Positions 1,214 through 23,901 of a DNA stretch of 64,000 nucleotides are shown piece by piece. Source of the DNA: Gekko japonicus (Eukaryota); the NCBI RefSeq assembly GCF_001447785.1, contig NW_015164247.1, positions 30,600 through 94,599 of the forward strand, in the 5' to 3' direction. The notes under the pieces were generated by a model. It saw nothing but the letters and a program-made list of their open reading frames with translations. It was not told the origin of the DNA and did not search any database. Position numbers and translations under genes: made by a program. Positions within the stretch are counted from its first letter, which is position 1, and each line of letters begins with the position of its first letter.

Positions 1214-1958
1214 GTGAGGGGCGCTCCTCGTCCCGGCCGTCCCTTTGGAAGAGCTTTAATAACAATCTGCCATAGCAACCATTCAGGTGGCTGTGAATAG
1301 GCCAGGATTCCTAATTTATGCCTGTTTGATCCAATGGGTTATCCCACTGAGAATTTTCTATCAAAAATATATTTGCATTACAATCCGGGGTTTGTTTACC
1401 CAGAGGTAAATCTGACTCCTTACTGAAAGTAATCACAATTTAGTCCTGCCCTGGAGCGATCAGAATTGACCCTAACCAGAAACTGCGAAATTAACGGAGA
1501 AATATTTACAAGGCTTTTAAAGACAGTTGTTTGGTTGCATACTGCCTAGGGGGACTTCTTGGGGGTAGGACGCCTCGTGTTAAAAAGCCACTTTATACTA
1601 TGTTTACGAAGGGAGAAAAGTGCCCTTTGCATGCGTGCCTGCCAATAAACAACTGAATAAACGGAGGTAGGCATGCATGGGCCTACTAAGGGGGGGAAAG
1701 AAGAAGGGCGGCATAAGACACCAAGAGCCGCTCCATCACTCAGGCCGCTTGGGCGGGAAAGAGGCGGCAGGGCGGGGTCAACCAAACGGCCCTGCTGATA
1801 TCCTTCCGCTCTCACGACATCCTGCACAGGAGGCGCCTTCCGCCACCGCCCGGCTTCTCAGTCAGTCGCTCCTTCCTTTGTGCCTTGCTGCCGGTCTCCT
1901 TTTGTTCCGGGAGGCTGCGGCATTCCCCCGGCGGATTCCCCTCTCTCTACGCAGCGAG

Positions 1959-2123
1959 ATGATGACCGACGGCCGGGAAGACTCGGCGGAGCTTGTAGGA
2001 GAGGCCGCCCACCGCGGGCTTTCTGCTCGGGGAGCCCACATAGCCGGCGGCGCGAACGGGCTGCTGGAGAAGGGGTTCGACATGTATATCCGGGACCCCT
2101 TTGACGCGGAGCGGAACCCGCAG
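1959..2123 (+). CDS. ACCS-like coding exon 1 (second tandem copy)
   Basis: MMTDGRED...LSARG...YIRDPFDAERNPQ followed by donor gtgagg; phase 0 into GILNFGTSEN. Confidence 0.85.
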
Positions 2124-5100
2124 GTGAGGGGCGCTCCTCGTCCCGGCCGTCCCCCCCCCTCCCCGGCCGGCTTGGGGGACCCCGCCTCGCCTGCAGACAG
2201 GGATGATGTAGGGCGACTAAAAGTGTAATTATGGAAGACCCGGATTGAGGATGGGGGCGATGTGAGGAAACGGGGTCATGTAGAGGGATGGGAATCGCTG
2301 CAGTGTCTGCATGAAGAAGAGGGGAGGAGGGTGGTAGGAAGGCGTAGGAATACTTGGGGAACGGAGTATGTGAATGTTGTAGAAAAAGGAATGTCAAGAA
2401 GGGGGTGTGGGAGGGAGTTTTGTAGGTGGGGGAAGAGAAGATGTGGGGCACAGCCCCAAGAGCTTAAGAGGGTTTGGGGGGGGGGATTGGAAGAGGATAG
2501 GCATCTTTGTATCTAGGCTGGAGCTTTGCTGCAGCTCTCAGGAGGGAAGGAGGCTTCCAGGTAAATATTCTTTATGGAGGTCAGGATTTCTGGATGGTTG
2601 GTGAACGAATGATGGCAGAAGTACTTCTACTGTTCCTTTCAGCCGGAGCTCCGCTGGCACAGCGTCGCCCTGAGCTCAAGCGGAGGGAGTTCCGTCCGGT
2701 TTGCACAAGCGGGAGGGTGACGTTATTCCCTGACCTGAAATCCCCTTGCTAGAAAACTGCTTGTACAGCTTCTTCTCACTGTTAGTCTAGGCTGCAGAAG
2801 AACTCAGCATGGGCATAAAGCTGTAGTCTTATATAAGAAAACATGCATAACCTATCTGTAGAAAATGGGAAGAAATCTCTAATGGGATATATTGATTTTA
2901 AAATGCCGAAGTAGATCCCTGATGATAAATGCAACTGTTTTTTTGACATGTCTCTAAAACGATATTTTAGTTTTGCTGTGTATAATGTTACTTCTTTGCT
3001 TATATTGTGGGAAAATATGTTCACTGTAGTAGTGTAGTTCTGTATTGCCTTTTGGTTCATTAGTTTTCTAACCAGGAAGAGTGTGCGGCAAAATTTTCAA
3101 GATTTTCCATGTTGGTGCAGAACAGCATGAGTGGCTGTAGCTCTTTAATGCATTATTTTGTTCCCAGGGCATTTTGAATTTTGGAACAAGCGAGAACAGG
3201 CTTTGCTATGATTTAATACACGGAAGGGTAAGTTTGGCTACACACATGAATAGTGTGGGTTACAGATTTTGGAAATCATAATTTGCATTTGTGGTTTTGA
3301 TTTCTTGTTGAATAGTCAAACATGATGTCTGATAGTACTAAATATGCAACAAAGTAATGAACCTGCTGCATTAATAACCAATGATTCAGTAGATGGCAAG
3401 GAGGACCATGGGAATATATTCCTTGCTGCATACTGGTCCAGTGATATAGGGGAATTTCAGACAGCCAATCTATTCCGGTTCAGGAACTGTTCCCTAACGG
3501 TTTCTGGTCTGACGTTTCAGACAAAACCGTTTTAGTAACGGTTCCCTACCAGAATATATCTTCACTTTCAGACAGAAACGCTTCTGTCCCATTCAGGAAA
3601 CATGGCTGAACCGTTTTACCTGCAAACTGCTTCCAAGCGGTCTCCACTTTTCTATACCATTTCTGAAACGCTACAGGGTGCTGTGTAAAATGCTCCTGTG
3701 CTGCTTTGTTTTCCAGCCCTTTTTTGCCCATCCGGGCGATAACGTTCGTTTTAGAGTGCTATGGCGCTATAACGCCATAACAGAACACCAAAACAGCGAC
3801 CCCATTGGAATGCCTGGACTCCACTGGGGTACATGAGATCGCTACATCTGCCACCTGGAAACAAGTACCTCATTGGACTGCAGGCTTTGGCAGGAAATCA
3901 GGGCATCAGTGATTGGTGTGACAGATGTTGCTGACCCTTCCATGCCCACTGTGAGTCCTTGCATTGTGGGGGGATGACAGAATCCAGGAAACTCTGCATT
4001 CGTCCCAAAGAAATTATGCTTATTTCCAAGGCAGACCTTCTTGTTGAAGAGCTCCTCCAGAATCACCTCCTTCACAATAAGGAATGCAGTTGACAGGCCC
4101 ACACCAAACTGATGTCTAAGTTCCCTGAATACTTCTTGCTTGGCCAGGTACCATAGGGTGATGGCCAGTCTTTTCTCCACTGGAATGGATATCCTAATGT
4201 GAGTGTTCTGCCACTCCAGACAGTGCCCCAGGTAACCAGCTAGTTCAAAAAAGGTTGCCCTAGACTTCTGGAAATTCTTCAGCCAGTCTTTATTGATCCA
4301 TGTGCCCATCACAGTGTTGTTCCACCGGTCCTCACTCCTCTCTTTTACCCACCAACATCGAGGGACTGTATGGGCAGCAATGACAGGTACCCATGCCTTG
4401 ATAGATGCCTTCCGATTGTACCTGGAGGGTGCATGGCTCAAGACAGGCATGTCAGTTCTCCTCCTAGAGAGATTAAGGAAGTGCGTAAGCACCTCACTCA
4501 AAGCTGCTGTGCTGCTGATCATCATCTGCAACACCTCCAGGATCAGTTGCAACAAGGTAGTTATGGAGACCATGACTAATAGATCAGTAGCCTCTCACAC
4601 AAAACTACTCTAACCAGACAAGCCTACCACTTACCAACTTCAGCCCACAATGATAAGGGGTTTGCCTCTCTGCCCTTTATACCTGATTCAGCTCTGTGCC
4701 AGTCACTTCCCAGCCAATCGCCTAGTGGCATGGATGGATGCACATCAGGCTGGGTCAGCAGCATCTGTCTCACCAATCACTTGTTGCCCTGATCTCCTGC
4801 CTAAACCTGCCGTCCATTTTCTCCCGAGCTCCTGATCTCCTGCCTAAACCTGCCGTCCAGTGAGCATTTTCTCCTGAGCTGGCAACCTGACAACCCATCA
4901 TCTTCCCCTGACTCACAGTGGGCATGGAAGGGTTAGCAACATCTGTCACACCAATCATTGATGCCCTGATTTCCTGCCAAAGCCTGCAGTCCAGGTGGCA
5001 GATGTAGCCATCTCATGTATCCCATTGGAGTCCAGGCATTCCAATGAGGTTGCTGTTTTGGTGTTGTGTTATAGTGCTATAGCGCCATAGCACTCTAAAA

Positions 5101-8100
5101 TGAACGTTAAAAAAAAACCTGCCGTCCATTTTCTCCCGAGCTGGCAACCTGACAACCCATCATCTTCCCCTGACTCACAGTGGGCATGGAAGGGTTAGCA
5201 ACATCTGTCACACCAATCATTGATGCCCTGATTTCCTGCCAAAGCCTGCAGTCCAGGTGGCAGATGTAGCCATCTCATGTATCCCATTGGAGTCCAGGCA
5301 TTCCAATGAGGTTGCTGTTTTGGTGTTGTGTTATAGTGCTATAGCGCCATAGCACTCTAAAATGAACGTTAAAAAAAAAGGATGGAGATTGCCTGCACGG
5401 GCAAAAATGGGCAGGAAAACAAAGTGGGGCAGTCTGAAATGCCAAACCGCTTCAAGAGATGGCTCCTTACTGGTAGGGGAAAGGCTGTGTGAAATGGCAG
5501 CCCTGTATCGGTTTACTCCAAGACAGTACAATAATGGCTTTAAAACGTCTTTAAAAGGGTAATGTGAAATTCCCCGTAGTGATAAATTTAAATTCCTGTG
5601 TTCAGTATAATTGTTGGTGACGTGCATTTTTTTTCTATTCAGCCTCTCGGGCTAGCCTGAGTGGAACCACATGGTACAGTAATGCACATATCAATCTTCA
5701 ACAAGGATGAAAGGGAAGATGCCTAAGCATAGTTACACCCTTCCAAGTTTGTTGAAGCCAGTGGGTATAACTCTGCTTAAGGTGGTTCTAAAACCTGGTT
5801 AATTTCTCAAACACTTTGTCACCAAGAAATAATGCTTGAATAAATTGATGAGAACAAGCTATAAATGGGAAAGTCTTTAACTACCTTTTTAAAATGTATT
5901 GACAGCTCACTAAACCTGACATGACTTATCTAGAGCCTCATTTACTGCAGTACTCCGATACACAGGGCATTAAAAGGTATGATTAATTCAACATCATGTG
6001 ATATTTGGGTGCAGTTTCTCATATTAGTTTTGGTAGCTATTAATGTTGTGCCACCGCTAAATGTCATTTGGCAACCATGGTACCACTTATTGTTCACTTT
6101 ACTGATTGATTTGATTTGTGTCCTGCTTTTTTACTGGGGGTTAGAAAGTGGCTCACACCATTGGTAATCTATAATTTTTTACATTTTACGTTATGAAATT
6201 AAAGCCATGAAGGTTGAAAAGTGCCCATTTGGGGGCATTTCTGGTTAGGAAAATAGCACAGGGTAAAGGCTGGAGGGCCCCCCCCCCCCGCACCACAATC
6301 TGGACTCAAATCATGAAGCATTTGCACTTGGGAAATGAGCTCCTGGCAGTGTGACATGTGGTTGATTTTCTTAAAATCAGGTGGGGGAACCTGGACCCAA
6401 CGGGGGGGGGGAATCTAGTTTGGCCTTGAGCCAATCCAGGAGCAGATGTGCAATGCAGTATTTGCCTGTTTCTCTCTCTCTCTCTCTCTCTTTTTTACAG
6501 AATGTGAACTGTAGCACTAACATAAGCACTGTTTCTAATTTTTAAATCACTACAGCCAAAAATGTGTTTTCTACTCCTCCAAACAGGATCACACCCACTT
6601 TTGTATTATTAAAATGTTTTATTATGATTATGAACTGCTTAATGCCAGTGATGTGATACTGTCTGTTAATTTTATACTTCAGCTTCAGAGAAGAAATTGC
6701 AAAGTTTCTTACTGAGTATGCAAAAGCTCCATCAGCACTGGATCCAGAACATGTAAAGTACCAAAGTATTATTTCTGCTTAATACTGTGACAGTAATCTT
6801 TAAGATCTTCATTGAGGCTTTTGCAAAGGTTGCTGGGTTTTTCATCCCTTTCAAATTGTTTTGGAAACTGTGCAACTCTAAAAAGTGATGGGATGTTTAA
6901 AGACAATTGATCATGATTGCATGTGTGTGTTTTAAATGTTTAGATAGAGCAAATACCCCACATAAACGATATATTATACGTGTCCCATTTTCCTTCAGAG
7001 ACCTCAGATCACCTTGCATAAGATTCTGAAGTTGTACAGGTTTTTTGGGGGGAGGGGTTAACTGGCTCAACTATAAAGGCTGGCTAATTCCTGCCCTCTC
7101 TCTCTCTGATCCGTTCCTTTAATTCATCCGTTCCTTTAAGTCATTAAAATAGCCACCTGGAAACACTGTTTTATTTTTTCAGTTTCTTTCTGTATACTTA
7201 CAGGAAGCAGTCAATTACTAAATTTAGCCAGTGGATTATCACTGTATGTAATGTGAGTAGGCCATGCACAGTATCCTTCTCAGAAGATGGTTGTATTGAC
7301 TGTGGCATTTTTGCTTGTGACATTCTAAGTAAAAATAAATTACCACTTGAAAGCAACCTCAGAAAATCTGAGCCAGTAAACAATATGTTGGTCTAAGTGA
7401 CATATGCTTTCATAATTTCACTTATGTAATAACCCTGTAAGAATCCTGAATACAGGAATGATTGGATTCCAGCCAGTAGGATCAATATGTATAGCAGGGA
7501 AAAAGACAACTGCTTGAGTTTGAGGATATAATGGCCTCTTTTTTAAAAAGTTGTTTGAACCGCTGACAACTGGATGTGGCAAACTTGTTTTAAGTCTAAA
7601 GAAAATCAGAGCTTCAGTGGTTTGGCAGTTTTGCTCATTGTAATTTGATATTTCCCCCCAAGATTACTGTGATGAATGGCTGTTGTGCCGTCTTCGCTAC
7701 TCTTTCAACTGTATTGTGTGATCCTGGAGGTAAGAAAACTTGCAGTTCAACCTTGTGCAGAATTACATTCTTTAAAATTAATGGACTTGGAAGGGTGTAA
7801 TTCTGTTTAGGATTGCAGTGTTAGATACATATTACCCATAGATAAGAACCATTCTGGTAACTGATGTTTCAGTTTGTTCCAAAAAAGGGTTCCTTTTTTA
7901 ATAGGCTTATCTGGGGATAATAGCTAAATCTCATACAGGGCAATCTTTTTATCACTTCATCTTATTGAAAATATGCCTTAACATAATTTACAAGTTTAGC
8001 TAAATTTCTTGTGAAATTCATAAAAGCTAAAAAATAGTATGTGCCTCTCCCATCCTAAATAACCCATTCAACCAAACTGGAGTTTGGATTAATCATAAAT

Positions 8101-11100
8101 TGAGACATAAGAGGTGAAAATAATTACTAAAAAATTGTATATTGGTGGGCTTTTGAGGGGGGAGTTGAGTGTATGCTAGTAATAGTATTTGATTTAGAAA
8201 CTTCACTTAATTAGGGCTGTTCTTTGGCACCATTCACTCAGACAGTATGAACACATAGAAAAAGATTTTGAAAGTATTAGTCTGCTATGTGCAAAGTATA
8301 GCACTAATTTTTAACAGCTGATAAACGTGCATATTGTCAATATTACGCGGTGTCGGCCCACAGCAGACCAAACATGGGTGCAATGGTATCCAATAAAGAC
8401 TGGAGTCTCTCAGGCTTATGTACAAATAATATACAGTTTATTATACAAGCCTCTCACCAAATTGCAAAGTATAGCACTAATTTTTAACAGCTGATAAACG
8501 TGCGTATACGAAATTTTCATTGTGCTTTTTTGTTGCAGATGGGTATCTAATTCCTGCTCCATATTATGGTGGCATAAATTCCAAAACTTGGCTGTATGGT
8601 GGAATGCAGCCTGTTCACGTGCCCTTGTTCAGTGAGGTAAAGCTCTCATTGTTTTATTTATTCATTTAGAAAATTTGTTTATGCTGCTTTTTCAGAAACC
8701 TGCCTGAGGCACCTTACAAAATACAAAATAATAAAAATAAAACATTAAAATATATTAAAATACAGCATTAAAAACCCAGCCCAGCATTTTAATTAAAAGC
8801 CTGGATGAACCAAAAAGTTTGGCCCAGTACATTAAAGAGAGTAACATAGGCTCTCTTTAAAGCACTGGCTGGCCTCAAGGGGAAGGGCATTCCACAAGTG
8901 AGGTGCCACTATTGACAAAGCACGCTCTCTGGTTATAACCTCCCTCACACCTCTGAAGGGTGGGCCACAAAGAGTAGAGTTTGTGAGACGGATCTTAACA
9001 ATATGGGAGGCGGTGGTCCTTCTGATTACCTGGCCTCCCAGGCCTTTTACGGGTTTAAAGGTAAGAACCAGCACTTTGAACTGGGCCTGGAAACATTTTG
9101 TTGTGCCCACCACCCTGATCAGAATTCTAGAGGAGCCTGCAGGTTCAGAAAAGTTGGGGACTCCATTTCTAACCATTATATTTATAAGATTATTGCCTTG
9201 TCCCATTGATACATTACAGTTTCTCAACAAATACCTCCTTTTTTCTTCTGTGTACTTGCAGAGGTGGCAGTATGTCACACCCTAAAAGAATGAATTTGGT
9301 CTCTAAGGATTTGTGCAGGAGAATGAGATGATAGAAGAATAGACTATACCAGACCATGCAGTATCACATTTTTGAAGGTTTTTCCTATCTTAACCCATTG
9401 CAACATCGAATCAGACCAAGCCACAAAAGATTCTGCACCCTTTCTCTATGCTTCTCTAGGTTGTTAGTTGCATGGAACTTTTATGCAAAAGCATATTCAA
9501 AGCTAGAATCTCACCTCCAGGCTGAAGTGGTAAAATTCATTACAACACTTCTTTGACACCTCTTTCTTTTGAAGGTGTGAACCAGGCCTGAAGACTTTTA
9601 ATCTCTGCATCAGTATATATCCAGTATACAAATTATTCTTTGTAAATAGCAAATTCTTTGCAAGACTGAAACTTACAAACATCAATGAAAATATTGACCT
9701 TGATCCCAGAAATTCATGAAGAGCAATAATGGTCTCCAAATGTAGGAAGGGAATATCAACAGTACAAGAAGGAGAACTCAGGGCATGAATGCACTATTTG
9801 CTACTCATGCATTTTGCTGTCTTTCCTCTAACCACAGTAACTACCTTTAAGACTCTCAAACAAAATAGTTCATTTCACTGTAGATTATTGCAGTGAGAAT
9901 TCCTAACTTCAGTTTTTGTTTTAAATTTTATGCAGGTGACTAATGAAGACGGTCGTCCATTTCAGCTAACAATTGAAAAATTAGAAATTGCATATAAGCG
10001 AGCGATGGAGCAGGTAAGAATATTTTAAACTGAACTCAGGTTGGTGTAAATTTGATTACTGTGGGTTGTATCCGGTCAGCCTTTGGCAGAAAACATGGGT
10101 TTCTCCTACATTCCCAACTCCAGCAGCCCCTTTCAATCTCTGGAAATATTATTTCTAGAGTTGTGGAAAGTATGTGGGCAGCCACTTAGGCTGGGGTAGG
10201 GGGCTGCAGTACGAAGGGATTGAAATATCTCCATGCTCTTACATCGACTCTAGACAGGAGGAAGAGGTGGCAGCAGTTTTAGCTCGTCTCATGACCTGCA
10301 CACCTGTCTGTTCTTGCAATTCCTGCTAGTTCAAAAGTAATATTTATAGAGTTGAAATGGATTGCTGTGGGAGGGGGAAACCACATCTGTCAGTTCCTTC
10401 TGGCATTTGGTTGGGTCCAACCCAAGTCAACTTTGCAATGAAAATGGACACACTTCCATATAACGGATTATTAATATTGCAAACATATGCAGAGGGACTC
10501 TAGTCTAAGCCCATTGATTTCCGTGGACTTGGACTGGAATAACTTCACAAGGTCGCACTGTAAGGCTTGTAAACACAAATATTTAAATGAGTAGGAGTAA
10601 TGCTTGCTATAAAAATGATCTCATTCTTCCATCCTTCATGCTGGTGTTTATAATTTTCTTGTGTAGATTTATGCGGCAATAGCGTTGTTGCTGGTTGGGC
10701 ATATCACATCTGTAATATTGTAAGGCAGACCTTAACTGTTGAAGAACAAATTCTAAGCAAACAATATTAAAAAGCTGCAAGATTCGAGTCCAGCAGTACC
10801 TTAGACACCAACAAGATTTCCAGGGTGGAAGAGCTTTCGAGAGTCAAAGCTCCCATTAATAAATTGAAAGATTCTTTTTTAAAAAATGATTTTTCTTCAG
10901 ATTATACATGGAAGCGTTGTAGATTGAAAGTTTGAGAACATCATAAAACATTCAAAAGCTGTTTTGATACTTTACATGCATTGCATTTCTGTGATAGTTT
11001 TAAATGGGTAAATTGCAGAAATTCCCAGTACGTTTTAACAACAACTCTGCCTCCCAGGGAAGAAAGGCATTTGATATTCCTCTGCCTTTTATGTATCTAT

Positions 11101-14100
11101 TTACATTAGGCACATTCTTTTACCTGTACTATAGTCTCCTCAGTGAGAAAATGTTTGCAATTCATAGGGGCTCTGGAAATTGGCACCAAAATATTCCAAA
11201 TTCTTTGAACACAAAATATAAATTTAGCAATGTGAATATACATGAGAACTTGGATTCTTGTATAATTTGTTGTGCATAAGACCAAGAGTCCAGTAGCACC
11301 TTAAAGACTAACAAAATTTGTTGTAGGGTATGGGCTTTTGCGAGTCACTGCTCACTTCTTCAGATACAGCTAGAATGGGAGTCCATCTGTCCTATATATT
11401 AGAAAGTGGAGTGATTTCAGAGGCCAAGTGACATTGGCAGGCAAATGACAATAGCAGGTGAATGACAATGGTAGGCGTGATTTAATTAGGTATGATATGC
11501 AGAGAGATAGTAGGTGTGGAGAAATCAACAGTTTCTCCACACCTACTACCCCTCTGCATACCACACCTAATCCAATCATCTAGCATCTGAAATCACTCTG
11601 CTTTCCAATATATAGGACAGAGTGACTCTCAAAAACTTGTACCCTGCTGCAACTTTTGTTAGTCTTGAAGGTGCTTCCTGGACTCTTTTTTATTCTGCTA
11701 CAGCCAGACAAACATAGCTACCCATCTTGTTGCGCATAGTATTTTTAGAATATGTGGAAATCGTTGATTGAAAATTATTGGAAATTGAGTAGGCCTGGGC
11801 CTTCAAGGAGAAAGGAAACTGATGACAAAGAGATGCAGACAGGGGGATTTGTATAGAATGATAGACTGAAGAAATCCCAGTTGCTGACTCTTTACTGTGC
11901 AGTCTCTAGTTCTTATGCCATTGATACAGAACAAAAAGCCAGTGGGAACAAAGCCACTGCTATGGGAATAGCACTTAACTGGGACTAAAGGTTGGATCCA
12001 GCAGTAATTTTCAGTGACAGAAATTACTTCCCCTGCCCTAGTATGGCACAGAACACTTTCCAGAATGCTGCTCCTGGGACATAGGAACAGTAGAGGCAAT
12101 GAGTCAGAGATATCAGCATTGAAGAAGAGAATTGGTGAAACACGTCCTTCCATAAGAAATTAGCACTGGATCCAACTCTTAATGTCGGTTTTAGTAGGGT
12201 TTACATGTACCTAACTCATGCTGCATAGCATTTTTAGGGTTTTCTATGTAAGAATAAAGATTCAGATTCAGAAACCTTTAATGGCATAAAATGTAATAAG
12301 ATTTTTATTGGAATATTGTTTGTAAATTCATTTGGTAACTACATAGGTTTGTTTTAATGGATATGAAATAGCTCAGTTAATTGTGACAGTTCAAATTTTC
12401 TTATTTCATCTTAGACATTTAGTGGATAGTGGAATCATTATACTGTGATTTGGATCGTAGTAACAGTGTGGTTTACTGTGTGGTGTATTTTTAAACTATC
12501 TTTTAAAGAATGGTGTTAAAAGAGGTACTCAGACTTCCTGAAATGAAGTCTGTTGCTAAACAAAAACATCTGAACTAGTAAAATATTATGGTACTGGAAT
12601 GTATTTTTTGCTTACAGAGACTTGGATTACTGTGCAATCAACCTTAGTACTTGACATTAATAAAATGGCAACTTTTCAGGCTCGTGGTCCTGTGTGACGT
12701 CGTGTTGGGGTCTCCGACTATCAGTTTTTCTTTTTTCAGGGCATCCGAGTCAGAGCATTAATCCTGATCAACCCTCACAATCCATTAGGGGACATTTACC
12801 CAGCACAGTTACTGAAAGAATGTCTAGAGTTTGCGCACAGGTTTGAGTCCTAGCGCTATTTGTTTGGGCTTGTAATTTTCCATGATGCAGAATGTTAGTT
12901 ATAAAACTGATTTTGATAATCTCCTTATTTCATTTGGCATATGGTCCTCCAAGAATTAATGTTTAAAATATCTTTGTTGTAATTAAACGTTGCATGGTCA
13001 TTGGTAGGGAAAAATATTAAGATTTCTTAAACCGGCAGTCTGTTTTGTAAAATGTAAAACCTACAGTTCCTATTTTGTGCGATGTTAAATAACAGAGTTC
13101 TTTAATCTGGATATCTTGATAATTTAATATTTAAAGCCTATGTCATAAAAATGAAAATAGGTGATTACCAAATAGATAGATGCCTTGATTTGAAAATATA
13201 GCCTTGTACAAGTTTATGGCGTGTGTTTATAAAATGAGGCTGATGATCAGGAGATCTAATTATGCCAACCAACCTGTAGAGGTCTAGCAGTGCAACCCTG
13301 AGTAGAATTACTCTAAGCCCACTGATCTAGGGCTCTTCTGCATCCTCATTTTCTTTGTTTGTTTGGGAGGGGGAGTTCTTTTCCAGATGTCTTTTGCTCC
13401 CTCTGGTGGTCGATTTGATATTACATTGTTATATGTCCAATGTATTACAAGCAATAGGGACACACAAGCGCAGAAAATGAGAATGCAGAAGAGCCGTTAA
13501 GACTGGAGTAGATCTGCCTAGGATTGTATAGTAAATGGTACCCAAATTAATCTTCCTCAGAAGAACTTTCATATTTTCTTGTTATTTCTCTAAGGGTCAC
13601 ATTCTAAGATCTAATTTTATTCTGCTATGGATTCTTGCTTAGTCAGGAAAACATTGATTTCACATGTAGTTTTGTCTAAGTAAGAATGCAAGGATTTGGA
13701 TATGTACTTAATGACTAATCTAATGGAAATAGGATAGCATTTTTAAATATATATATATATAATAAATGGATACATTTTAAATTTTGGAGACTACTAGATA
13801 TAATGGCTACCATTATAATAATTATCATCATGTGTGTGAAACCTCAAAGGGTAATATTCTTCCCTCCCACTCCAGGATGACCCTGAAGACTTGAGGCTGT
13901 AGTCTGCCTCTGTCATTTTATGTACTTTGAACTTTTTCATTTTTGGAAAAAGATTATTGATACCTTTGTGTCTTTCATACATACTTTGGCCTGCTAAAAT
14001 TATTTTAGAAGAGCACAGTTTGGTGTGTACTTTGTGGCTTTTACTTTGTGGCTGCTGTAAAATAAGTGCATGGTGATTTTTCAAGCACTATCTGGCTTGC

Positions 14101-17100
14101 ACAATATTGTGTAAAACTTACAAGTACTTGGTTTTAACTTGGTTATAGTACGGCTAAAATAGGGAATTCAAAAATACATTATTTGCTTAACAGAGAACTT
14201 TAGGTGTATAGAAGATCTTTGCTGAGAAGAGTAACTTGATTTAAAAACAAGCTTATTAACCAGTTTGTACTTGTATCTTTAAGTACGATATAGCTAACTT
14301 GGATGAGCATAGAAGGAAATATACGGGCTTATAAATGATTTGCTAAGGTGCAGTTGCAATAATGCAATTTTAATTACACCCACTGAAATAATTTTTGTGT
14401 TTCTTATGTATATAGATATCAATTACACATAATAATGGATGAGATTTACATGCTGTCCGTATATGGTGATACCACCTTCACAAGCATCCTTAGTTTAGAT
14501 AGGTAAGTTAACATTTCTGGTCTTGTAAAAACCAATGTGTGTCATTTGGGCTTTCTAAATGGACAATCTGATAAATATTCCTGTTTGTTTGACTTTATGC
14601 AAAAATAGTCTGTACTTTAGCTGCCTCCATAAATCATACTTCAAAACAATGACTGCAGATACAGAAACAGTAGATTACTGGAAAACTGCTGTTGCTTTGT
14701 AGCTAACTCTTTAATTCATTTATTTTCAGTCCCATGAAATGGACTGCTTCACGTTTCTGAAATCATACGCAAAGTACAATGGCTGTAACTCTGCTCCCTC
14801 TGCATACCCAGGGGCTCTTCATTGGGTAGCTTGCTTTACTGCTTTACACACAGCTGTGTTACATCATGGCAGGTCATTCAGTGAAAAGTCAAAGTGCTTT
14901 AATGCCTTCCCTGGAAATGTCTAATAACATTGTCTTCCCTGAGCTCTTGTGAATGCCAACAGTTACTTTCCAGGTAGCCTACATTTTGAGATGTATATGT
15001 GTGCTTGAGAATGAATGGATCACTGGAAAATTCAGGGTGAGGCATAAGTTTTTCACTGAATGTCTTGCCAATAGTATATTTGGCATCACAGTTTACACCC
15101 CCTACAAGGGCAGAAGAGAATGGTAAGATTGTGCCAGAGCCATTCCACACCGTCTTCTGCATGCCAGAAGAGCTGGATTGTGGTCTGCATTCTTCATTTA
15201 AGACGTCACCAAATCTCTGATCTGAGCATGTCATGGTCAGGATATCGTGTGCAATGCAACCCAGTGTTGTTGTTTTTTATGGTGTAAACCATCTTGGAAA
15301 TTTTGAAAGATCTGTATGCATTTTATGAATGGACCAAGTAGTCTGTGACATACCTGTTCCCTCTGCATACATAGGGATCTGCAGAAACCTTTCTCAAAAT
15401 TGTTTGTGTTAGCAAAAACATTTAAACTTCTTCACTATCTAAACATAAAAGATTTTGTGTCAGTATTGTTATAATTCGAATGTCTGAAGATTTATACTAT
15501 GACTGTAGTATCCTTGAGTGCATTGCATGGTGCAGTTGTTTCAGTGGATAGTACAGTTTGGTGCAGATGCTTGTATGTGCATTGGACTCCTATGCCTGCA
15601 GCAGATCTTGCTGGATTAGAATAAAATTCCTTCCAAAAACTACTTTTCTTTATGTCTGAAGACTAATATTTATTCCTATAAAACATTAATTTTCTGAAAC
15701 AATCTTTTCTTAAGTTTACCAGATCCTGACCGGACACATTTTATGTGGGGATTTAGCAAGGTAGGTTTGGAACATTTATTTATATTGCTTCAAAATGTAA
15801 TTGATGTTTCAAATTGTTAATTGTCACATGTCCCCTCCCCCATGTACTGCTTTTTTCTGTAGGAGGTTTTGTAACATCTTAGAACTAGTAGCATAATTAT
15901 GGGCAGTGTTGCCTCTAAGCTGAGTTAATGTGAGCTAGCTCACAGTTTTTTAGCCTCCGGCTCACACATTTTTGTCTTCGCTCAGGAAGGATGGCTCCAG
16001 AGCAAACTAATTTATGCAGTAGCCAAGTTGCTTGCTCACAACTTTAATGTCAGTAGCTCACAAAGTAGAGTTTTTGTTCACAAGACTCCACAGCTTAGAG
16101 GGAACATTGATTATGGGTTGGAAAACTTAGCCCCTACTGCGTCTGCATCACAAGCCAAGCCACTGGTGTGATAGCATATTCTGTTTTTCAGGTGCTTGAT
16201 GGAAACTGATGTTACAGTTAAGCAGTTTTAATGTGTCATGGGTGAAAGCATCTTTAAAGAATGCAGGAAGAACAGCTCACAATATTTGTGCACCAATTTC
16301 TAGATACAGTTCTGTAAAATACCATCTAATTTGGAACATAATTTTGAAAACTGTGTTTCATAGCTAGTCTCTATGACCTCTTCAGTCATGACACAGTTTT
16401 TCTTCACCTTCATTTCTTGAAAGAACAGTGGGTTATATGCAGTGTCTATATTCTGCTGATGGAGGAAGAGGTTCTTTGACTGGTGGATCAGACTTGTTAG
16501 ATACAGCCATTGAAATTGAGCCTGAAGATTGCTGTTGATGTCTGACTTCAGTGATGCATAGCATCTTTTCCCTTTGGCTGATAGTATATAAGTATATTTA
16601 AGCACTCCTGCTTTGTAAGTTTATTTATGAACCACTTTGTTTTTGATGCTTTATGATCAAATTCCAAATGACGTCTTTAAGGTGAAAATAACATTAAAAG
16701 CCAAAAATGTATACAAAAACATACAAGGGAAAAATAAAGTATAATAAATAGCTCATTTACAGGAGCTAAACTCTTAAATCTGGCAATATAATGTGGTAAT
16801 GAATTCAGCTGTTATGACTGAAAGGTGATCTATAAATAGTTTGTGAATAAATTGGTTAACATAAAATAAATGATTCCAAAGTATGCACTCTAATTTAAAA
16901 AGCATAAATGCTTTGATAAATCAGGATAGAGTTCTCCTTGTCCAGCATCCTATATGTATAATTCCCTTATGTATTGGCCATTTCCAGCTCTCCCGTTGGC
17001 TGTGCAGTGTGCTCCATCAACCATTGGCCCATGAACCGCCACTCGAGTACTCGCATGCTGTTTGGCCCATCAACCACCACTCAAGAGTGTGCTGGGTCCG

Positions 17101-20100
17101 CTCCTCTCCCCCACCTACTGCCAGCCCAGACACTCTCCCCTGACAGAATAAACTGCCAAAATGGCTGTCTGTCCTGACAAAGACACTTCTCCTGCTTGGA
17201 TCCTGTGGGACTAACTTTTCCCTCAGTGGCTGTTGCGAGGCAACTAAGTTTGGTTCTGCCAGTAAAAAGGCAAAGGCCTTTGTGGGGAACTCATTGGGGC
17301 CAGTCCTGACTAGGGTTGCCAGCTCCAACTTGGAAAGTTCCTTGATATTCTGTGGTGGAATCTAAGGAAGCCAGAGTTTGGGGAGGGGAACCATAGACTC
17401 CACCCTCCAAACCAGCTATTTCTTCCTGGGGGGCTATTGCTGCCAATCTCCAGGTGAGAGCTGGAGATCACTCAGAATTAAAACTGCTCTCCAGATGGCA
17501 GAGATGAAGAAAATGATGGGCTGTGTGTCATACCCTGCTGCGGTTGCCTCCCCAAGACAGCCAATGTGACATAGTGCTTCAGAGCAGGGTCTTCCAGACC
17601 CAGGTTCTTCCTGTGGAAGCTGATTGGGTGATTTCAGACCACTCACAGACTTTCAGGGTAACCTACCTCACAGAATTATGTGAGCTGCTTTCATCCCCAC
17701 TGTGGAGAAAGACTGTACTTTTCCTAGGTTACAGGGAGGGGGGAAGAGATGGAAACCTGAAGTCAGAGGGGTAGATAACAGTATGTTGATGGTTGGCTGG
17801 GAAGGAAATAGGATTGCCAACTCTGGATTGGGAAATTCCTGGAGATTTGAGGGGTGGAGCCTGGAGAGGGTGGGATTTGAGGAGGAGTGAGACCTCAGAC
17901 AGGTACAATGCCATAGCCTCTACCCTCCAAACCAGCCATTTCGTCCTGGGGAACCATTGTTTCCAATCTCCAGGGGAGGACTGGAGATCACCCAGAATTA
18001 CAACTGCTCTTTGAATGGCAGAGATCAGTTCCTGTGGAGAAAACAGTAAACTCTGTGTCATTATGCCCTGCTGAGGTCACCACAGCAAATTGACGCTTAA
18101 TGCCCAAGGCCAGGGCACCCACCCAGAGCCTTTTTCTAGATCTTGTTGTATTTATTTCCACAACGGCCTTATTCCTAGTTATTTAGAAGAATCCCAGCAG
18201 TCACTGGTAATGGACATTCTGCACAGCTCTGGTTGGGGCATGACCTGGGTTCAGTTCAGACACCATTAAAAATACAGCTAGTGTGATTGTCTAAATGTAG
18301 GGCACTCCACTAACCATGGTTGGTTAGAGCTTATCAGGTCAGGATCTCAAATGATACTTTTAAATTAGTTTATTAACCACAGTTAATTGTGCTGATGTGG
18401 GTAGGACCTGAAGAAATGTGCACCTTCCTGTCCATGCTTTGACTGTGATCTTTCTGAAAAGATGATGCCAAACCAGGTTAGGGAAATATTTCAGCAAAAT
18501 GGAGAAAAACATGGAAAGTGGATGATAATGTGTGGGTGCTGCAAGTTAACTGGAGCAACTCTTCCATGTGGAAGCAACCAAAGGCTCTGTTCACATTGTA
18601 AATTGCTTATCTGTAGCATCCAGCAGCATATCGAATTAGACGCAGAGTATCTGTTCTACTATCCTGAATGCAGGAGGATAGAGAGAACATAATGGTTTAT
18701 GTTACTACATGGCCTGTCACTACAAACAGTTGGGCTCCACTGTGGGTGCAGTTTCCACATACTGAGGCTCCTATCTGAGACTAGATTTAGGGGAACAGCA
18801 GAAGTCTCCAAACTAAGATTTCTAGTCTTAATAAGCACTAACTTACGAAAATACTTTGGGAAAAGACTTCACATTTCCTTGCTTTAGTTAATGTCCTTTT
18901 TTAAAAATGATTTTTGTATATGGCCAGGGACCAGCATACCTGCAGTACCGCCTTTCCCCATATATACCCCAGAGAGCACTTCGGTCAGGTTCTCAAAAGT
19001 GATTGCCCTCCCTGGCCCTAAGGAGGCCAGACTGGCTATTGCCAGGGCCAGGGCTTTCCCAGTGGCAGCCCCATCCTGGTGGAACGAGCTCCCGGAGGAG
19101 ATCAGGGCCCTGCGAGACTTTTTGCAGTTCCGCAGGGCCTGCAAGACGGATCTCTTCTGCCAGGCTTTTAGTTAGGGAGCCGCTACTATTATAGAGCCCT
19201 GGCTCTTGGTCCTTAACATATTGGAATCTAACATCTAACCTGTGCCTCAGGGAGATCCAGAGCAGAATTACCTTCAGAGAGTTAAGCCATCTTGGATAAT
19301 CAATTGCAGCACTTTATGTAACAGTAATATCAATGGAATTGTTTTTAACTGTATTTATGTATTGTGAGCCGCCCTGAGCCTGCGTTGCGGGGAGGGTGGG
19401 GTACAAATTTGAATAATAAATAAATAATAAATAAATTGTAAAGCACTAAGATGTTTGCTTGAAAACTAAGAAATCCCATCTCCATGATCAGAATCAGAAA
19501 TACACTAGAAATTGATTTTCCTTCACATTAATTGTGAATAATACAAATATATAAATATATTTTGCATATTAATATTTTAATTAAAATTAATCTTCTCTTC
19601 TTCTTTGCTCTTGTCCTCCCCCCCCCCCCAAAAAAAAAAGGATTTTGGCATGTGTGGTGTCAGAGTTGGCATATTATATACCAGAAATGATGAAGTCAGG
19701 AAAGCTGTTAATAAGCTGGCAGTTTTTCATGCATGTCCTGGACCAGTGCAACATGTTCTCAGCCAGTTTCTTAGTGACCGAGGTTAGTAAATCTAAGGAC
19801 ACCATGGTACTGTTTATATCTAATTCTCATGTGTTATGCATAAGTCTAAGATTGCATTCGGACATTACAGTAAGCTGCAATTAAGCTGAATGAATGAATC
19901 TGACTTGTTTCTGAATCTGTATACAGGACTTACTTCTTCTCTTACCCTCTTCTTTTTGCATGACGTATCGTAGTTAGAAACTAACTCAGCTTACCTGTGA
20001 TATACAAATACAGGTGTATGGCTCAACCAGCAGGCTTGTATTAAAATCCTAGTTGGTGTAGGAACAGGGTTGCCAATTACAGGATGGGAAATTGCTGTGG

Positions 20101-23100
20101 ATTTAGGGTTGGAGCCTTGGGGAGGGTGGGGCTTCAGAGGAAAGGACCTCAGGAGGTCATAATGCCATAGATTCCACTCTCCAATGCAGCTGTTTTCTCC
20201 AGGGGAGCTGATCTCTAGAGGCTGGAGATTGGTTGTAATTCAGGACATCTCCAGGCCCCACCTGGAGGCTGTCAACCCTATGTAGTGAAACTAGTTTCAG
20301 TAACCCACATGGCTGCACTTGTGTATTGTGGATAACCACAATTAGTTTTTAAGCAGGATTCTCTGCGAGAAGGGAGGAGTAAGACCACCAGCATGCTGAG
20401 TTTGTGCATGTGTTGACTGACAACATCTGAATGTAGTCCAAGTTATGAGTTCCAGCCCTAAACATCAGGTGCATCTGAATTGCAGCTCAGGGTGACCCAG
20501 CCATTTCCTTCTTTGAGTGTAACCAACCCAGTGCCTTAGTCAAGTTGGAGTGAATGATTCATTAATACCCTGCTGTAATGTAAGAAGTATGGAACGTTGG
20601 GTGCAATTCACATCTCACTGAAGTCAGCACCTAAAAAGATAGGTTCACCATAGCTATTAGCGGTGATGACTTGATGGAACCTCTGTATTCAGAGGCTGTT
20701 CACAGGGACAGGCTTTGGCTTCTGTGCTCTGCTGTTAGGCCTTCTAGGGGCATCTTGTGGGTCACTGTGTGGGACAAAAACTAGGTTATATTGCCAATGG
20801 TTTCATTGAGCTCTTACAGCTGTACCTGAATAATACAATTTGTGTTCTTATTTTGACAGAATGGCTGGATAATGTGTTTTTCCCTACCAACAGAAGAAGG
20901 CTTAAGGAAGCTCGGAATATTCTTGTGGATGGTCTTGCAGAGATAGGAATACCTGTTTTTAAAAGCTCAGGAGGATTATACATCTGGGCTGACTTCAGAA
21001 AAGTATGTGAAAAAATCTGGAGATCAGGAAGGGTTGGCTGAAGGAAATAAGTACTGCTGGCTTTTTTTAAAATGCTGAACTTTAATAATATTTGGCATCT
21101 ATCTGTGCATATCAAGTGCTCAAAGTGCTTTATGTTCATCGTCTCAGTAATCCTTACAATGAGGCTGTGAGAACAGTGGCTTACTTGAAGCAGCCTAATG
21201 AGTTTGTAGGTGAAATGTGATTAAAAGTGTGGACTTCCTGGCTCACTCCTTTAGCCACTAGAGTGCATCAGGTGGTGGGTGGGAAATAGGCTGTTGTTCA
21301 GTGGATACTGGAAGCATATGTGCAGGTAGAATCTGATGTCCATTTTTTGTGCCTGGTGGTATTGGCTGAGACAACTTAGACTGGCTAGAGTTAAAGTTGT
21401 AATGTACTTAACCTAGTGGTAGGATTAAGAAAAAAACTGGGACAATTTTGCATCTGGTCCTGAAGAAATAGGTATTTTGTTTTTGAGCCATGCAGTAGGT
21501 CAATCTAGGCAAGCTCTAATGATTCTGGCCATGTTGATACTTTCAGAGAGGGTAAAGTGCTTTTCTGTTTTGATAATGTGGCTTTATATGGTGTTCTATT
21601 AATGTGTTATCCTTTGTTTTTCTTCTTAGTTCTTAAAGTCACAGACATTTGAAGCTGAAATGGATTTATGGTGGAAGCTTCTCCAAGAAAAGCTTCTTAT
21701 TAGTCCTGGGAAAGCCTTTTGCTGTTATGAACCTGGATGGTTTAGATTGGTCTTCTCTGATTCAGTAGATAAGATTTACTTGTGTAAGATTAAATTTTGA
21801 TATTTTTTTCACCCCCGCCTGCCCCCAGCATGATACAACCATTAATTTCAGGCTATCAGTATGTTCCATGTTGGGTCTGGAAAAAATTAAACTGACAAAA
21901 GCTTTTTTTATGATAATATATATCATCATCATAAAACAGTTCAATCCTATGCAGTTACTTCAAATTAAGCCCACTGAAATCAGTGGACTTAGACTGGAGT
22001 TAACTTGATGTATGATCACACCAATTTTCCTACATAGGCCCCAGTCACACGGGCCGGATAACGCGGGGGGGGAGGCGGGACTATTTGCGCCACTGCAATT
22101 AGAGCCGCCAGAACGTGATCCCACGCGTTGGCAGCATGCCACGGTTCCTTCCCTCCACGCCTGCGCATCGAGGTGCCGGAGGGAAAAGCCGTGCACCGGC
22201 AAGATCACACCGAGGGAGTCCAGAAGCAGCCTGTGGCAAACCGTTTGCTAGTACCTTCGAGGAGGTAGTTTTTTATTGCACATTTTCAGCGGTACGCCAC
22301 GGGTTGACCACGGGTGCGCTCCAATTGCCAGATGTTGCGGTGTGATCGCGCCCGGAAAATCTGCCATTCGATCATGGCTCTCCCGCAGCAAATTCAAAGG
22401 TTCACATTGCTTGATTATACTATTCTTACATTCTCTGAATTCTTATCTGGACATTGCACTAAAATAAGTCAACTGGGGCTGCGGTCACACGGAACATTAG
22501 CCACGTAAAAGAGACTGAAGACAGGCGGATTTTCCGGGCGCGATCTCACACGCACATCTTGGAAGCGTAGCGCTTATGTGGCACAACCAAGGCTTCCTGC
22601 CAAAAACACGCAGCAAAAAACTAGTACCTCGTTGGTACTAGTTTCCGGAAACCGCGGGGCAAGGGTGGGCGTCTGATCGCATTTCCGGTGGCATCCGGCG
22701 CCCGCCCATGTCCCCTTGCGGAAAAGGGTTTTTCCCCCCCCAAGTCTCCGTGGATGCGCACACGCACCCAACGAAGCATGCACATTCGTCGTGTACACAA
22801 AAAAAGAAAACCAGTTTGCCGCACCGCGCGCTTCTTTGTTGCGCGCAGGCGTGTCTTGTGATCGGCACCTCTCCCTACCCACAGAACCTCCACGGTACCT
22901 CCACAGAAGGTCTGATCGCTTAACGGCGCGTTAGTTTGCCCCGGGGCAAACAGCCATGCTTCCCCCCCGCAGTTTCCTGCCCATGTGACCGGAGCCTGGG
23001 AGGGCCAAAAGCTGATCCTTGTTCTTAAGGTCTTCAGGAAGGCAAAATTCCAACTGGCATGTAAATATGTGAAAGCTGTCATCTGTATAACTGTTTCTTC

Positions 23101-23901
23101 AAAAAGCAGAATTGCTTGATTGGCTCAGGTCCGTAGCTTATAGCACAACAAAGACTTTTCTTTAAAACAGAACTCTTCCCCCCCCCCCCCCCCCGCCCCC
23201 CCCCCGGGGCGCCCTCTTCCATTTTTTTTTTAAAAACCCTTCCCCCCCCCCCCCCGAGATATCCCAGAGGGTACCTTATTAGCCTTTTATTAATGGACTT
23301 TGTTTTGGCAGCAACAGACTTAAGTGTTTATGAGCCAAAGCCTGCATGCATCGGACAAATTGACCCTTGACTCCCACAACCTTATGCCACAATAAAAGTA
23401 TTGATTAGGGATGGGCATAAACCAAACCGTAAAGTAAAAATAGCTGAGAACTTAAAAGGGACTGCAGAAGAAAATGCAAAAAACAGCTGAGTGGCAGGGA
23501 GCTGCCCGCTGCTTTTTGCACTTTACTGTGCAGTCTGTTTGAAGGGACTGCACAAGAAATCACAAATGAAAGCTGCAGCGGGCTCTGCGGCTCAGTTGGT
23601 TTTTTTTTTGCACTTTCTGCAACCACACACACAAACACCCAGTTTAAAGGAACCGCAGTCTCTTTCAATGGGGTTTGTGGGGCCATGAAACCCGTAATTT
23701 ATTTATTACTCTTTATTTTTAGGCATTCAGAGACTTCAACAAATGCTGCATGACAAGATAGATGAATCCATTCCCATCTGTTCATCTCTTGTAAAAAATG
23801 AGTATTGCAAGTCAGATGATGAAACTTCTAACTACATGAGCACTTCAGTGGATGATGTTCCAGAAGGATGTTCACACCTGAAAAAAATAGCTGTTTTTTG
23901 A
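1959..23901 (+). CDS. ACC-synthase-like PLP-dependent enzyme (ACCS/ACCSL family, aminotransferase class I/II), 14 coding exons, 486 aa
   Basis: Exons 1959-2123, 3168-3227, 5906-5976, 6683-6752, 7663-7729, 8539-8636, 9936-10013, 12740-12840, 14416-14502, 15715-15760, 19641-19782, 20860-21002, 21630-21783, 23723-23901. All are GT-AG with compatible phases and total 1461 nt with no internal stop. Motifs GTSENRL, PAPYYGG, NPHNPLG, DEIY, FSKDFGMCGVRVG and EPGWFRLVFSD align to ACCS/ACS boxes. Symbol withheld because the locus is not the EXT2-linked ACCS/ACCSL locus. Confidence 0.93.
3168..3227 (+). CDS. ACCS-like exon 2
   Basis: cccag|GILNFGTSENRLCYDLIHGR|gtaagt. Confidence 0.93.
3449..5575 (-). 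mobile_element. PIF/Harbinger DNA transposon derivative with truncated transposase (ORF 4573-3842)
   Basis: Terminal inverted GGGGAATTTCA at 3449 and at 5565-5575. The ORF has the HARBI1-like N-terminal/HTH motifs FQKSRATFFEL and ISIPVEKRLAITLWYLA...FGVGLST; no DDE domain is present. Confidence 0.85.
5906..5976 (+). CDS. ACCS-like exon 3
   Basis: gacag|LTKPDMTYLEPHLLQYSDTQGIK|gtatga. Confidence 0.9.
6683..6752 (+). CDS. ACCS-like exon 4
   Basis: ttcag|FREEIAKFLTEYAKAPSALDPEH|gtaaag. Confidence 0.92.
7663..7729 (+). CDS. ACCS-like exon 5
   Basis: caag|ITVMNGCCAVFATLSTVLCDPG|gtaag. Confidence 0.93.
8539..8636 (+). CDS. ACCS-like exon 6
   Basis: tgcag|GYLIPAPYYGGINSKTWLYGGMQPVHVPLFSE|gtaaag. 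Confidence 0.93.
8655..9095 (-). mobile_element. L2-type LINE 3' fragment
   Basis: QFKVLVLTFK...RALSIVAPHLWNALP C-terminal motif and an ATTT-rich tail. Confidence 0.8.
9936..10013 (+). CDS. ACCS-like exon 7
   Basis: tgcag|VTNEDGRPFQLTIEKLEIAYKRAMEQ|gtaag. Confidence 0.93.
11285..11725. mobile_element. Penelope-like element remnant with inverted pseudo-LTR ends
   Basis: agagtccagtagcaccttaaagactaacaaaa at 11285 is mirrored by ttttgttagtcttgaaggtgcttcctggactct ending near 11686; related pieces at about 10785-10853 and 23310-23405. Confidence 0.7.
12740..12840 (+). CDS. ACCS-like exon 8
   Basis: ttcag|GIRVRALILINPHNPLGDIYPAQLLKECLEFAH|gtttga. Confidence 0.93.
13331..13495. mobile_element. Small MITE with 24-bp TIRs, nested in a palindromic repeat
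   Basis: GGCTCTTCTGCATCCTCATTTTCT ... AGAAAATGAGAATGCAGAAGAGCC (23/24 complementary). Confidence 0.75.
14416..14502 (+). CDS. ACCS-like exon 9
   Basis: tatag|YQLHIIMDEIYMLSVYGDTTFTSILSLD|gtaagt. Confidence 0.93.
15715..15760 (+). CDS. ACCS-like exon 10 (ends in the PLP Schiff-base lysine)
   Basis: taag|LPDPDRTHFMWGFSK|gtagg. Confidence 0.93.
15904..16109 (+). mobile_element. hAT-type MITE
   Basis: TIR CAGTGTTGCCTCTAAGCTG / CAGCTTAGAGGGAACATTG with perfect 8-bp TSD ATTATGGG. Confidence 0.88.
18920..19437 (+). mobile_element. L2-type LINE 3' end
   Basis: RAFPVAAPSWWNELP motif, gtgagccgccctgag 3' element and (TAAA)n tail. Confidence 0.85.
19641..19782 (+). CDS. ACCS-like exon 11
   Basis: aaag|DFGMCGVRVGILYTRNDEVRKAVNKLAVFHACPGPVQHVLSQFLSDR|gttagt. 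Confidence 0.92.
20066..20280. mobile_element. AGGGTTGCCA...CAACCCTA family non-autonomous repeat
   Basis: Inverted ends; related copies at about 60-138, 17311-17500, 17808-18075 and 35390-35570. Confidence 0.6.
20860..21002 (+). CDS. ACCS-like exon 12
   Basis: gacag|WLDNVFFPTNRRRLKEARNILVDGLAEIGIPVFKSSGGLYIWADFRK|gtatgt. Confidence 0.93.
21630..21783 (+). CDS. ACCS-like exon 13
   Basis: cttag|FLKSQTFEAEMDLWWKLLQEKLLISPGKAFCCYEPGWFRLVFSDSVDKIYL|gtaag. Confidence 0.93.
22037..22996. mobile_element. CpG-rich non-autonomous DNA transposon (Harbinger-like TIRs)
   Basis: Left GGCCCCAGTCACACGGGCCGGATAACGCGGGGGGGAGGC versus reverse complement of the right end GGCTCCGGTCACATGGGCAGGAAACTGCGGGGGGGAAGC. 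Confidence 0.75.
23723..23901 (+). CDS. ACCS-like terminal exon 14
   Basis: tttag|(C)IQRLQQMLHDKIDES...KKIAVF then TGA at 23899-23901. Confidence 0.88.

Follow-up and report, generated by a model that had tools for sequence, protein, structure and literature searches.

An intact, expressed ACC-synthase-like gene of Gekko japonicus and its very likely place in a second ancient vertebrate ACCS lineage

Does a gene for an enzyme similar to ACC synthase (ACS; ACC stands for 1-aminocyclopropane-1-carboxylate) in the genome of Gekko japonicus represent the reptilian form of mammalian ACCS or ACCSL, or is it a different enzyme, and which reaction could it catalyze? The gene is found at 1959-23901 on the plus strand of the window, by which we mean the whole analyzed stretch of 64,000 nucleotides (contig NW_015164247.1 of assembly GCF_001447785.1, positions 30,600 to 94,599). 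Its 14 exons comprise 1461 nt in a single open frame of 486 amino acids plus stop codon, and the spliced product is letter-for-letter identical to the RefSeq-predicted “ACC synthase-like protein 1” of Gekko japonicus (P0001). Judged by its protein sequence, the gene almost certainly belongs to a second, ancient lineage of vertebrate ACCS, here called clade B, and is a paralog of ACCS.

Phylogenetic position of the gecko protein

Homologs were collected in searches covering 82 of 94 candidates, the best 120 of 672 and the best 120 of 367 matches, and in a library-wide search (best 150 of 12055), 30 proteins of which were traced to a name. From the 350 proteins gathered in total, 59 were picked for a careful maximum likelihood (ML) tree with 437 columns. 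In this tree the vertebrate rows split in two, clade A (support 100/99, 28 rows) and clade B (90/97, 22 rows). Clade A contains lamprey, hagfish, sharks, ray-finned fish (Astyanax among them), lungfish, amphibians, the gecko Sphaerodactylus, tuatara, turtle and bird, and it also takes in platypus, marsupials and eutherians with all mammalian ACCS and ACCSL rows. The gecko protein belongs to clade B together with squamates, turtle, gharial, birds, caecilian, salamander and frogs as well as lungfish, coelacanth, sturgeon, gar, chimaera, shark and skate. Support for uniting A and B is weak (82/50). Approximately unbiased (AU) tests reject a grouping of B with eutherian ACCSL (p = 5.1e-6), of sauropsid B with all 8 mammalian rows (p = 7.4e-66) and of all jawed-vertebrate rows without lamprey and hagfish (p = 3.6e-5). 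Because these alternatives are rejected, the A/B split appears to predate the cyclostomes under the tree model used; long branches are in play, and the cyclostome test inherits any model bias. Weighing against the assignment to a separate lineage are the bootstrap support of clade B, which is 90 and not starred, and the long lungfish row.

Both types occur in 16 named species (Sarcoramphus, Tinamus, Upupa, Eretmochelys, Sphenodon, Rhinoderma, Mixophyes, Ascaphus, Discoglossus, Pelodytes, Hyperolius, Rhinatrema, Protopterus, Polyodon, Lepisosteus and Scyliorhinus torazame), as called by profiles that were built partly from the rows of those same species. An A-type protein is present in another gecko, Sphaerodactylus (P0315); none of Gekko japonicus itself was found among the matches listed. 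The first-pass annotation had regarded the gene as a separate ancient paralog and not as a translocated ACCS, with which the distinct clade, the AU tests and the two types in 16 species agree. It had also put the gene forward as a candidate third vertebrate paralog; the gene is indeed a separate paralog, but the word third is loose, since there are two old lineages and ACCSL is nested within A.

Eutherian ACCSL nests among the mammals of clade A, together with an opossum protein (99/94). This protein, Monodelphis P0084, is labelled ACCS-like protein 1. Because P0084 groups with ACCSL and neither mammalian branch includes the platypus row, ACCS and ACCSL seem to have arisen by a therian duplication; ACCSL is an offshoot of ACCS that branched off late, in mammals, inside clade A. 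Within clade B, the frog proteins (P0075, P0076, P0272, P0273, P0277) and lungfish P0083 sit on long branches and have remodelled residues in boxes 2 and 3, whereas the A copies of those frogs evolve slowly; we read the frog and lungfish sequences as candidates for relaxed or shifted specificity. The unnamed B-like protein P0101 is closest to frog proteins. Polypterus P0319, considered as a B member, was rejected as it falls in A in the ML tree.

All 40 proteins that are named mammalian or clustered with one are A-type, platypus and marsupials included, and so are all four named teleost proteins, which come from one species only. No mammal or teleost name occurs among the B-type rows, an absence that refers to annotated proteins and to the best 120 of 672 and the best 120 of 367 matches. 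From these sequences a loss of clade B is very probable in mammals and somewhat probable in teleosts. This scope itself speaks against the two losses, as does the fact that the best-120-of-367 listing omits 3 of its own 18 query rows, which are frog proteins, so that a fast-evolving B ortholog could be missed. Three mammalian matches of high rank, P0290, P0275 and P0274, proved on checking to be A-type models with repeated segments. For cyclostomes, bichirs and Xenopus no B-type protein was seen among the matches listed, which may be due to loss or to a listing gap. Of the earlier statement that the gene was kept in reptiles and lost in humans, the mammalian absence holds insofar as none was seen among the annotated proteins listed, but a restriction to reptiles does not, since clade B ranges from chondrichthyans to birds.

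Gene structure, expression and locus

The first-pass reading of 14 phase-compatible exons that encode an open 486-residue enzyme of fold type I, dependent on pyridoxal 5′-phosphate (PLP), was confirmed in all parts, P0001 being identical to the product. All 13 introns have GT..AG ends and compatible phases; intron 10 splits the FSK motif with K281. The features are as follows.

1740..1958 (+), probable promoter and 5′ untranslated region (UTR), GC/CpG-rich, upstream of the start codon; limits approximate
1959..2123 (+), coding exon 1 with ATG, residues 1-55 (product identity to P0001)
3168..3227 (+), coding exon 2, residues 56-75, GTSEN box, E64 corresponding to apple E47 (36-read loose end and alignment)
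5906..5976 (+), coding exon 3, box 2: Y91; S92, aligned with Q98 of AtACS7; T94, where apple has Y85 and ACCS has Trp (706-nt joint)
6683..6752 (+), coding exon 4 (read joints of 706 and 910 nt)
7663..7729 (+), coding exon 5, G128-C129-C130 at the start of the PLP-phosphate helix (read joints of 910 and 809 nt)
8539..8636 (+), coding exon 6, which carries box 3: ring-stacking Y154; S159/K160 replacing apple R150/D151 (joints of 809 and 1299 nt)
9936..10013 (+), coding exon 7 (read joints of 1299 and 2726 nt)
12740..12840 (+), coding exon 8, NPHNP with N217 (read joints of 2726 and 1575 nt)
14416..14502 (+), coding exon 9, DEIY with D245 and Y248 (read joints of 1575 and 1212 nt)
15715..15760 (+), coding exon 10, ending with the catalytic K281 (read joint of 1212 nt)
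19641..19782 (+), coding exon 11, R289 and box 6 with H311 (read joint of 1077 nt)
20860..21002 (+), coding exon 12 (read joints of 1077 and 627 nt)
21630..21783 (+), coding exon 13, GWFR with R415 for the substrate alpha-carboxylate (read joints of 627 and 1939 nt)
23723..23901 (+), coding exon 14, closed by the TGA stop codon, disordered tail with a predicted local distance difference test (pLDDT) score below 50 at 443-486 (read joint of 1939 nt)
23902..25009 (+), 3′ UTR; spliced contig reaching 24974, AATAAA at 25004 as presumed poly(A) signal
28061..33418 (-), neighbor gene read as GATAD1, tail-to-tail, GATA zinc finger in its first exon (Pfam PF00320, E = 3.8e-7 on 33122-33412)

Three raw RNA-seq runs of a single study were mapped on 5600-25400, and so was one contig set (X1); the RNA libraries appear unstranded, and the RNA status of X1 is a guess. 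The first-pass annotation had allowed for a gene with no transcripts, whereas spliced reads were found with the predicted lengths and GT..AG ends of 10 of the 11 introns in this range (706, 910, 809, 1299, 2726, 1575, 1212, 1077, 627 and 1939 nt). No joint for intron 10 appears in the rows listed, which are 40 short of the full set. The exon 1-2 junction falls outside the stretch mapped with reads; in run X21, the loose end shared by 36 reads before 5905 fits the end of exon 2. An X1 contig of 1826 nt spans exons 11-14 and the 3′ UTR to 24974 with zero mismatches. The gecko gene is intact and expressed.

At the 5′ end, the first two 2-kb bins have CpG counts of 87 and 62 in comparison to 6-23 across the next nine, the count of the first bin being inflated because a duplicate copy of the promoter region falls there. 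This second copy of promoter and exon 1 is located at 615-1243 and 321-491, among N gaps; the 615-1243 copy is 97.6% identical to 1537-2153 over 629 nt, and the exon copy differs by one silent base. It probably stems from the other haplotype, duplicated in the assembly.

The downstream neighbor is a GATA zinc finger gene with further exons near 31582, 29967, 29155 and 28246, which we take to be GATAD1 in view of the chicken gene order; a PDB search with one of its exons gave no match. On this side the gecko gene does not border on EXT2, the neighbor of ACCS. The human GATAD1-PEX1 interval contains ERVW-1 and is not known to hold an ACCS-like gene. For chicken chr2, a genome-wide association table in PMC10976558 gives the order GATAD1, ACCSL, PEX1. 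In the sterlet gene model P0070, PEX1 domains are fused to the C-terminal part of a clade B enzyme. A tblastn search of the window with this PEX1-fused model detected no PEX1 exon and matched only exons of the clade B gene; the upstream neighbor of the gecko gene falls outside the window. A position between PEX1 and GATAD1, with the PEX1 side taken from the chicken and sterlet sources, is the best explanation of these data.

The remainder of the window contains repeats and several open frames. In intron 2, an adjacent 253-nt duplicate with 99.6% identity occupies 4865-5379, with an inverted relative at 3740-3957; we read the duplicate as a repeat or an assembly duplication. An interspersed repeat of 207 nt occurs at 15903-16112 and 30440-30646, the two copies being inverted, 88% alike and covered very deeply by RNA reads. 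It reads as a high-copy element resembling a short interspersed nuclear element, one copy of which lies in intron 10. Between the two 3′ ends, a protein-like, stop-free frame of 111 codons at 25595-25930 (-) has no Pfam match and may be a chance frame or a repeat fragment. Broken frames at 53003-54802 (-), 33687-34232 (-), 40405-40905 (+) and 47168-47578 (-), likewise without Pfam match, presumably represent reverse-transcriptase fragments of long interspersed nuclear elements. A long exon at 61307-62056 (-) with a 250-codon open frame (61304-62056), which we assume to be the end or last exon of ANKIB1, has no Pfam match and weak leads to a ubiquitin-interacting motif in Atlas (0.82). In all, Pfam gave nothing on eight other frames of the window.

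Active site and proposed reaction

The product matches the Pfam family Aminotran_1_2 (PF00155) with 218.6 bits against a cut-off of 19.7 (E = 1.9e-64). The top six PDB sequence matches are all ACS with E-values from 1e-73 to 5e-69, followed by the next match at 1e-27, and the Atlas score for the ACS/ACCS-like family is 0.98-0.99. An AlphaFold model calculated from an 80-row alignment has a mean pLDDT of 88.7 with a disordered tail (443-486). Foldseek returned 1YNU as best fold match (E 1.3e-44, template modelling (TM) score 0.80/0.92), and the top 13 fold matches are all ACS. By sequence and fold, the closest relatives are therefore ACS and ACCS and not generic aminotransferases.

Residues were compared after aligning 29 proteins of type B with 31 of type A, 9 outgroup sequences and 2 plant-type ones. 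E64, N217, D245, K281, R289, H311 and R415 are kept in 29/29 B proteins, Y91 and Y248 in 28/29. The Schiff-base K281, the pyridine D245, the phosphate R289 and the carboxylate R415 align to the corresponding residues of the apple enzyme and AtACS7, and the motifs named in the first pass are all in place (TSEN E64, NPHNP N217, DEIY D245/Y248, FSK K281, GVRVG R289, GWFR R415). Over residues 20-440, the gecko protein is 82-84% identical to B proteins of turtle, gharial and birds and 69-73% identical to those of sturgeon, chimaera and coelacanth.

Vertebrate ACCS (human ACCS/PHACS, 11p11) and ACCSL form the sister clade, with 47-52% identity of typical members over residues 20-440. The catalytic core, Tyr91, a residue other than Gln at the Q98 position and His311 are common to A and B; His311 is found in all 60 vertebrate rows (29/29 B, 31/31 A) and in only 2/9 outgroups. 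In contrast, B has formed a separate clade since before the cyclostome split, as the tree suggests, and its locus is GATAD1-PEX1. In box 2 the sharpest difference is the Trp at position 94, present in 27/31 A and lost in B (0/29, mostly Thr or Val; Thr94 in the gecko). B also differs from A by lacking its Lys/Arg at position 95 and its His at position 97 (26/31 A), where B has an aliphatic residue, Met or Thr. An automated scan for clade-diagnostic columns gave six columns; position 94 escaped it owing to the variability of B at this site. At position 160, Asp is present in 9/9 outgroups and Lys in 10/29 B (sauropsid rows).

In birds, turtles, amphibians and gar, long isoforms of A-type ACCS have an N-terminal Myb/SANT-like domain (PF13837) ahead of the PLP domain (P0283-P0286, P0288, P0309, P0320, P0321, P0323, P0324, P0327-P0330, P0332, P0335, P0337, P0339, P0341, P0342, P0344; confirmed by Pfam in P0285 and P0337), which was seen on no B-type or mammalian row among the matches listed. 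The catalytic Lys is replaced in 2/31 A rows, Thomomys ACCSL (P0110) and one other. P0110 is also without the phosphate Arg and the carboxylate Arg, and its changes would fit a loss of catalysis in some ACCSL.

Seed-plant ACC synthases (EC 4.4.1.14; apple 1M4N/1YNU, AtACS7 7DLW) share the fold, the PLP and catalytic residues and about 32% identity with the gecko enzyme. However, the gecko protein is without Q98 and S313 of AtACS7, the latter aligning to V309, and without Y85, R150, S18 and Y19 of the apple enzyme; in B as a whole, apple S18, Y19, Y85 and R150 are not conserved and D151 is found in just 5/29. Alignments to 1M4N, 7DLW and 1IAX reproduce the contrasts in box 2 and box 3 to plant ACS that were seen in the first pass. 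In box 2, however, the missing Gln is not specific to this paralog, being common to all animal ACCS-like proteins (0/29 B and 0/31 A at the Q98 position; Ser92 in the gecko). With these replacements, ACC synthesis by the gecko enzyme is unlikely.

A comparison with non-seed-plant enzymes points to another reaction. According to PMC8580319, the tested non-seed-plant ACS-like proteins have no ACS activity and some are C-beta-S lyases, and the lyase reaction of AtACS7 requires N217, D245 and K285 but not Q98. The lyase PpACL1 and the chimera AtACS7-R6 (7DLY) are likewise without Q98 and have the box 2 Tyr five residues before Gly; this Tyr-x4-Gly spacing of the lyase-only chimera is the same in the gecko. 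The lyase-essential Asn, Asp and Lys, which are necessary and not sufficient, are present in the gecko as N217, D245 and K281. In contrast, PpACL1 and AtACS7-R6 belong to a distant plant lineage, and the gecko residues of box 4 and box 6 differ from theirs. We propose, with belief and doubt in about equal measure, that the enzyme is a C-beta-S (beta-) lyase with a cysteine derivative as its substrate and not an ACC synthase.

In such a reaction, the fold-type I enzyme, presumably a homodimer, would hold PLP in an aldimine with K281; D245 would contact the pyridine nitrogen, Y154 would stack on the ring and R289/S280 would bind the phosphate. Candidate substrates are cystine, a cysteine S-conjugate or its sulfoxide, the carboxylate of which would be bound by R415. 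K281 would take the C-alpha proton to form a quinonoid stabilized by D245, and departure of the beta-substituent, the sulfur leaving group, would yield a thiol, persulfide or sulfenic acid together with pyruvate and ammonia. The pocket contributed by the second subunit would be unlike that of ACCS. For human ACCS, a vinylglycine deaminase activity and, in a 2025 FEBS J report, a cysteine S-conjugate sulfoxide lyase activity are reported; they favor the lyase as leads only.

Several points weigh against the proposed lyase reaction. It is a prediction from residues, and the same conserved residues serve transaminases equally. The pocket positions 92, 94, 159 and 160 vary within B, and therefore one substrate may not hold for the whole clade. 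A swap of box 4 abolished the lyase activity of AtACS7 (PMC9917878), which calls for caution because the gecko box 4 differs from that of plants; it has His where plants have a Ser that may be the one of PMC9917878.

It is possible, though we hold the view only tentatively, that the same paralog physiologically catalyzes a transamination of the aromatic, kynurenine or glutamine type with the lyase reaction as side activity. The Pfam match to Aminotran_1_2 is in line with this, and in both sequence and fold the matches that follow plant ACS are aminotransferases for aspartate, aromatic amino acids, prephenate and kynurenine. These, however, are only 18-24% identical with TM scores of 0.63-0.70, in comparison to 30-33% and 0.75-0.80 for ACS, and of the 25 NCBIfam families listed (of 65) none reached the cut-off. 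Y91, five residues before the box 2 Gly, resembles in this spacing the cross-subunit Tyr70 of aspartate aminotransferase. Within the same family, Arabidopsis ACS10 and ACS12 are aminotransferases, which at the same time counts against a lyase; human ACCS, on the other hand, is reportedly a lyase/deaminase and not an efficient transaminase.

Rather doubtful is a gamma-elimination or cyclization, either as deamination of vinylglycine-like substrates or as a reaction that turns S-adenosylmethionine (SAM) or a related sulfonium into ACC or some other cyclic amino acid. The nearest solved structures are true ACC synthases, and AtACS7 Q98A retained 6.93% of the ACS activity (PMC8580319); yet the equivalent of Q98 is missing in 29/29 B proteins, the other apple and AtACS7 residues are replaced to the extent given above, and human ACCS was without ACC synthase activity (PMC2748086, citing Koch 2001). 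A PLP-binding copy that is physiologically non-catalytic or redundant is quite improbable: the gene is apparently dispensable in mammals and perhaps teleosts and the frog and lungfish branches are long, but the high identity within B, the invariant catalytic residues and the spliced transcripts argue against it. Finally, a translocated reptile ortholog of mammalian ACCS or ACCSL, as database names (ACCS-like protein 1, or ACCSL in chicken) imply, is scarcely tenable given the AU tests against B with ACCSL or with the mammalian rows, the position of ACCSL within mammals in A, the two types in 16 species and the A-type protein of Sphaerodactylus; the ML tree likewise contradicts a 1:1 orthology to mammalian ACCS, a possibility raised in the first pass.

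Naming and meaning for the family

The gene is already present in databases, as it is RefSeq-predicted in many genomes, which limits the surprise. Chicken “ACCSL” on chr2 is the ortholog of the gecko gene, since P0029 and P0034 score as B and the neighbors match; it differs in name only, and the symbol is a misnomer. In searches of the open-access literature we found no paper that treats clade B as a lineage of its own or tests the enzyme, and no functional study of chicken “ACCSL”; the split may already be visible in public gene-tree resources. The list of “elusive genes” by Hara 2018 (PMC5901865) aims at genes missing in birds too, and its main text and 12 of 19 supplements have no ACCS match. 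Passages of PMC11428511, PMC13401957, PMC13197776, PMC11383694 and PMC12847875 contain nothing on the clade B gene.

In conclusion, human ACCS, a poorly understood PLP enzyme, now stands within a two-gene vertebrate family that would be older than jaws. Because chicken “ACCSL” is not mammalian ACCSL, knowledge should not be transferred by name. A and B form a natural enzyme pair with the same core and different pockets, and therefore the substrate question is testable side by side. Due to the box 2 pocket being opened without Trp and the sauropsid Lys160 in place of the Asp of plants and invertebrates, we speculate, while holding it improbable, that B acts on a substrate of its own that ACCS does not use, and that in sulfur-amino-acid or SAM-related metabolism it catalyzes one step, perhaps a gamma-elimination or cyclization to a small signaling amino acid. 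This step would be run by most jawed vertebrates and would have been lost independently in mammals and teleosts. If it is true that B has its own substrate, the gene would mark a metabolic step lost by mammals.

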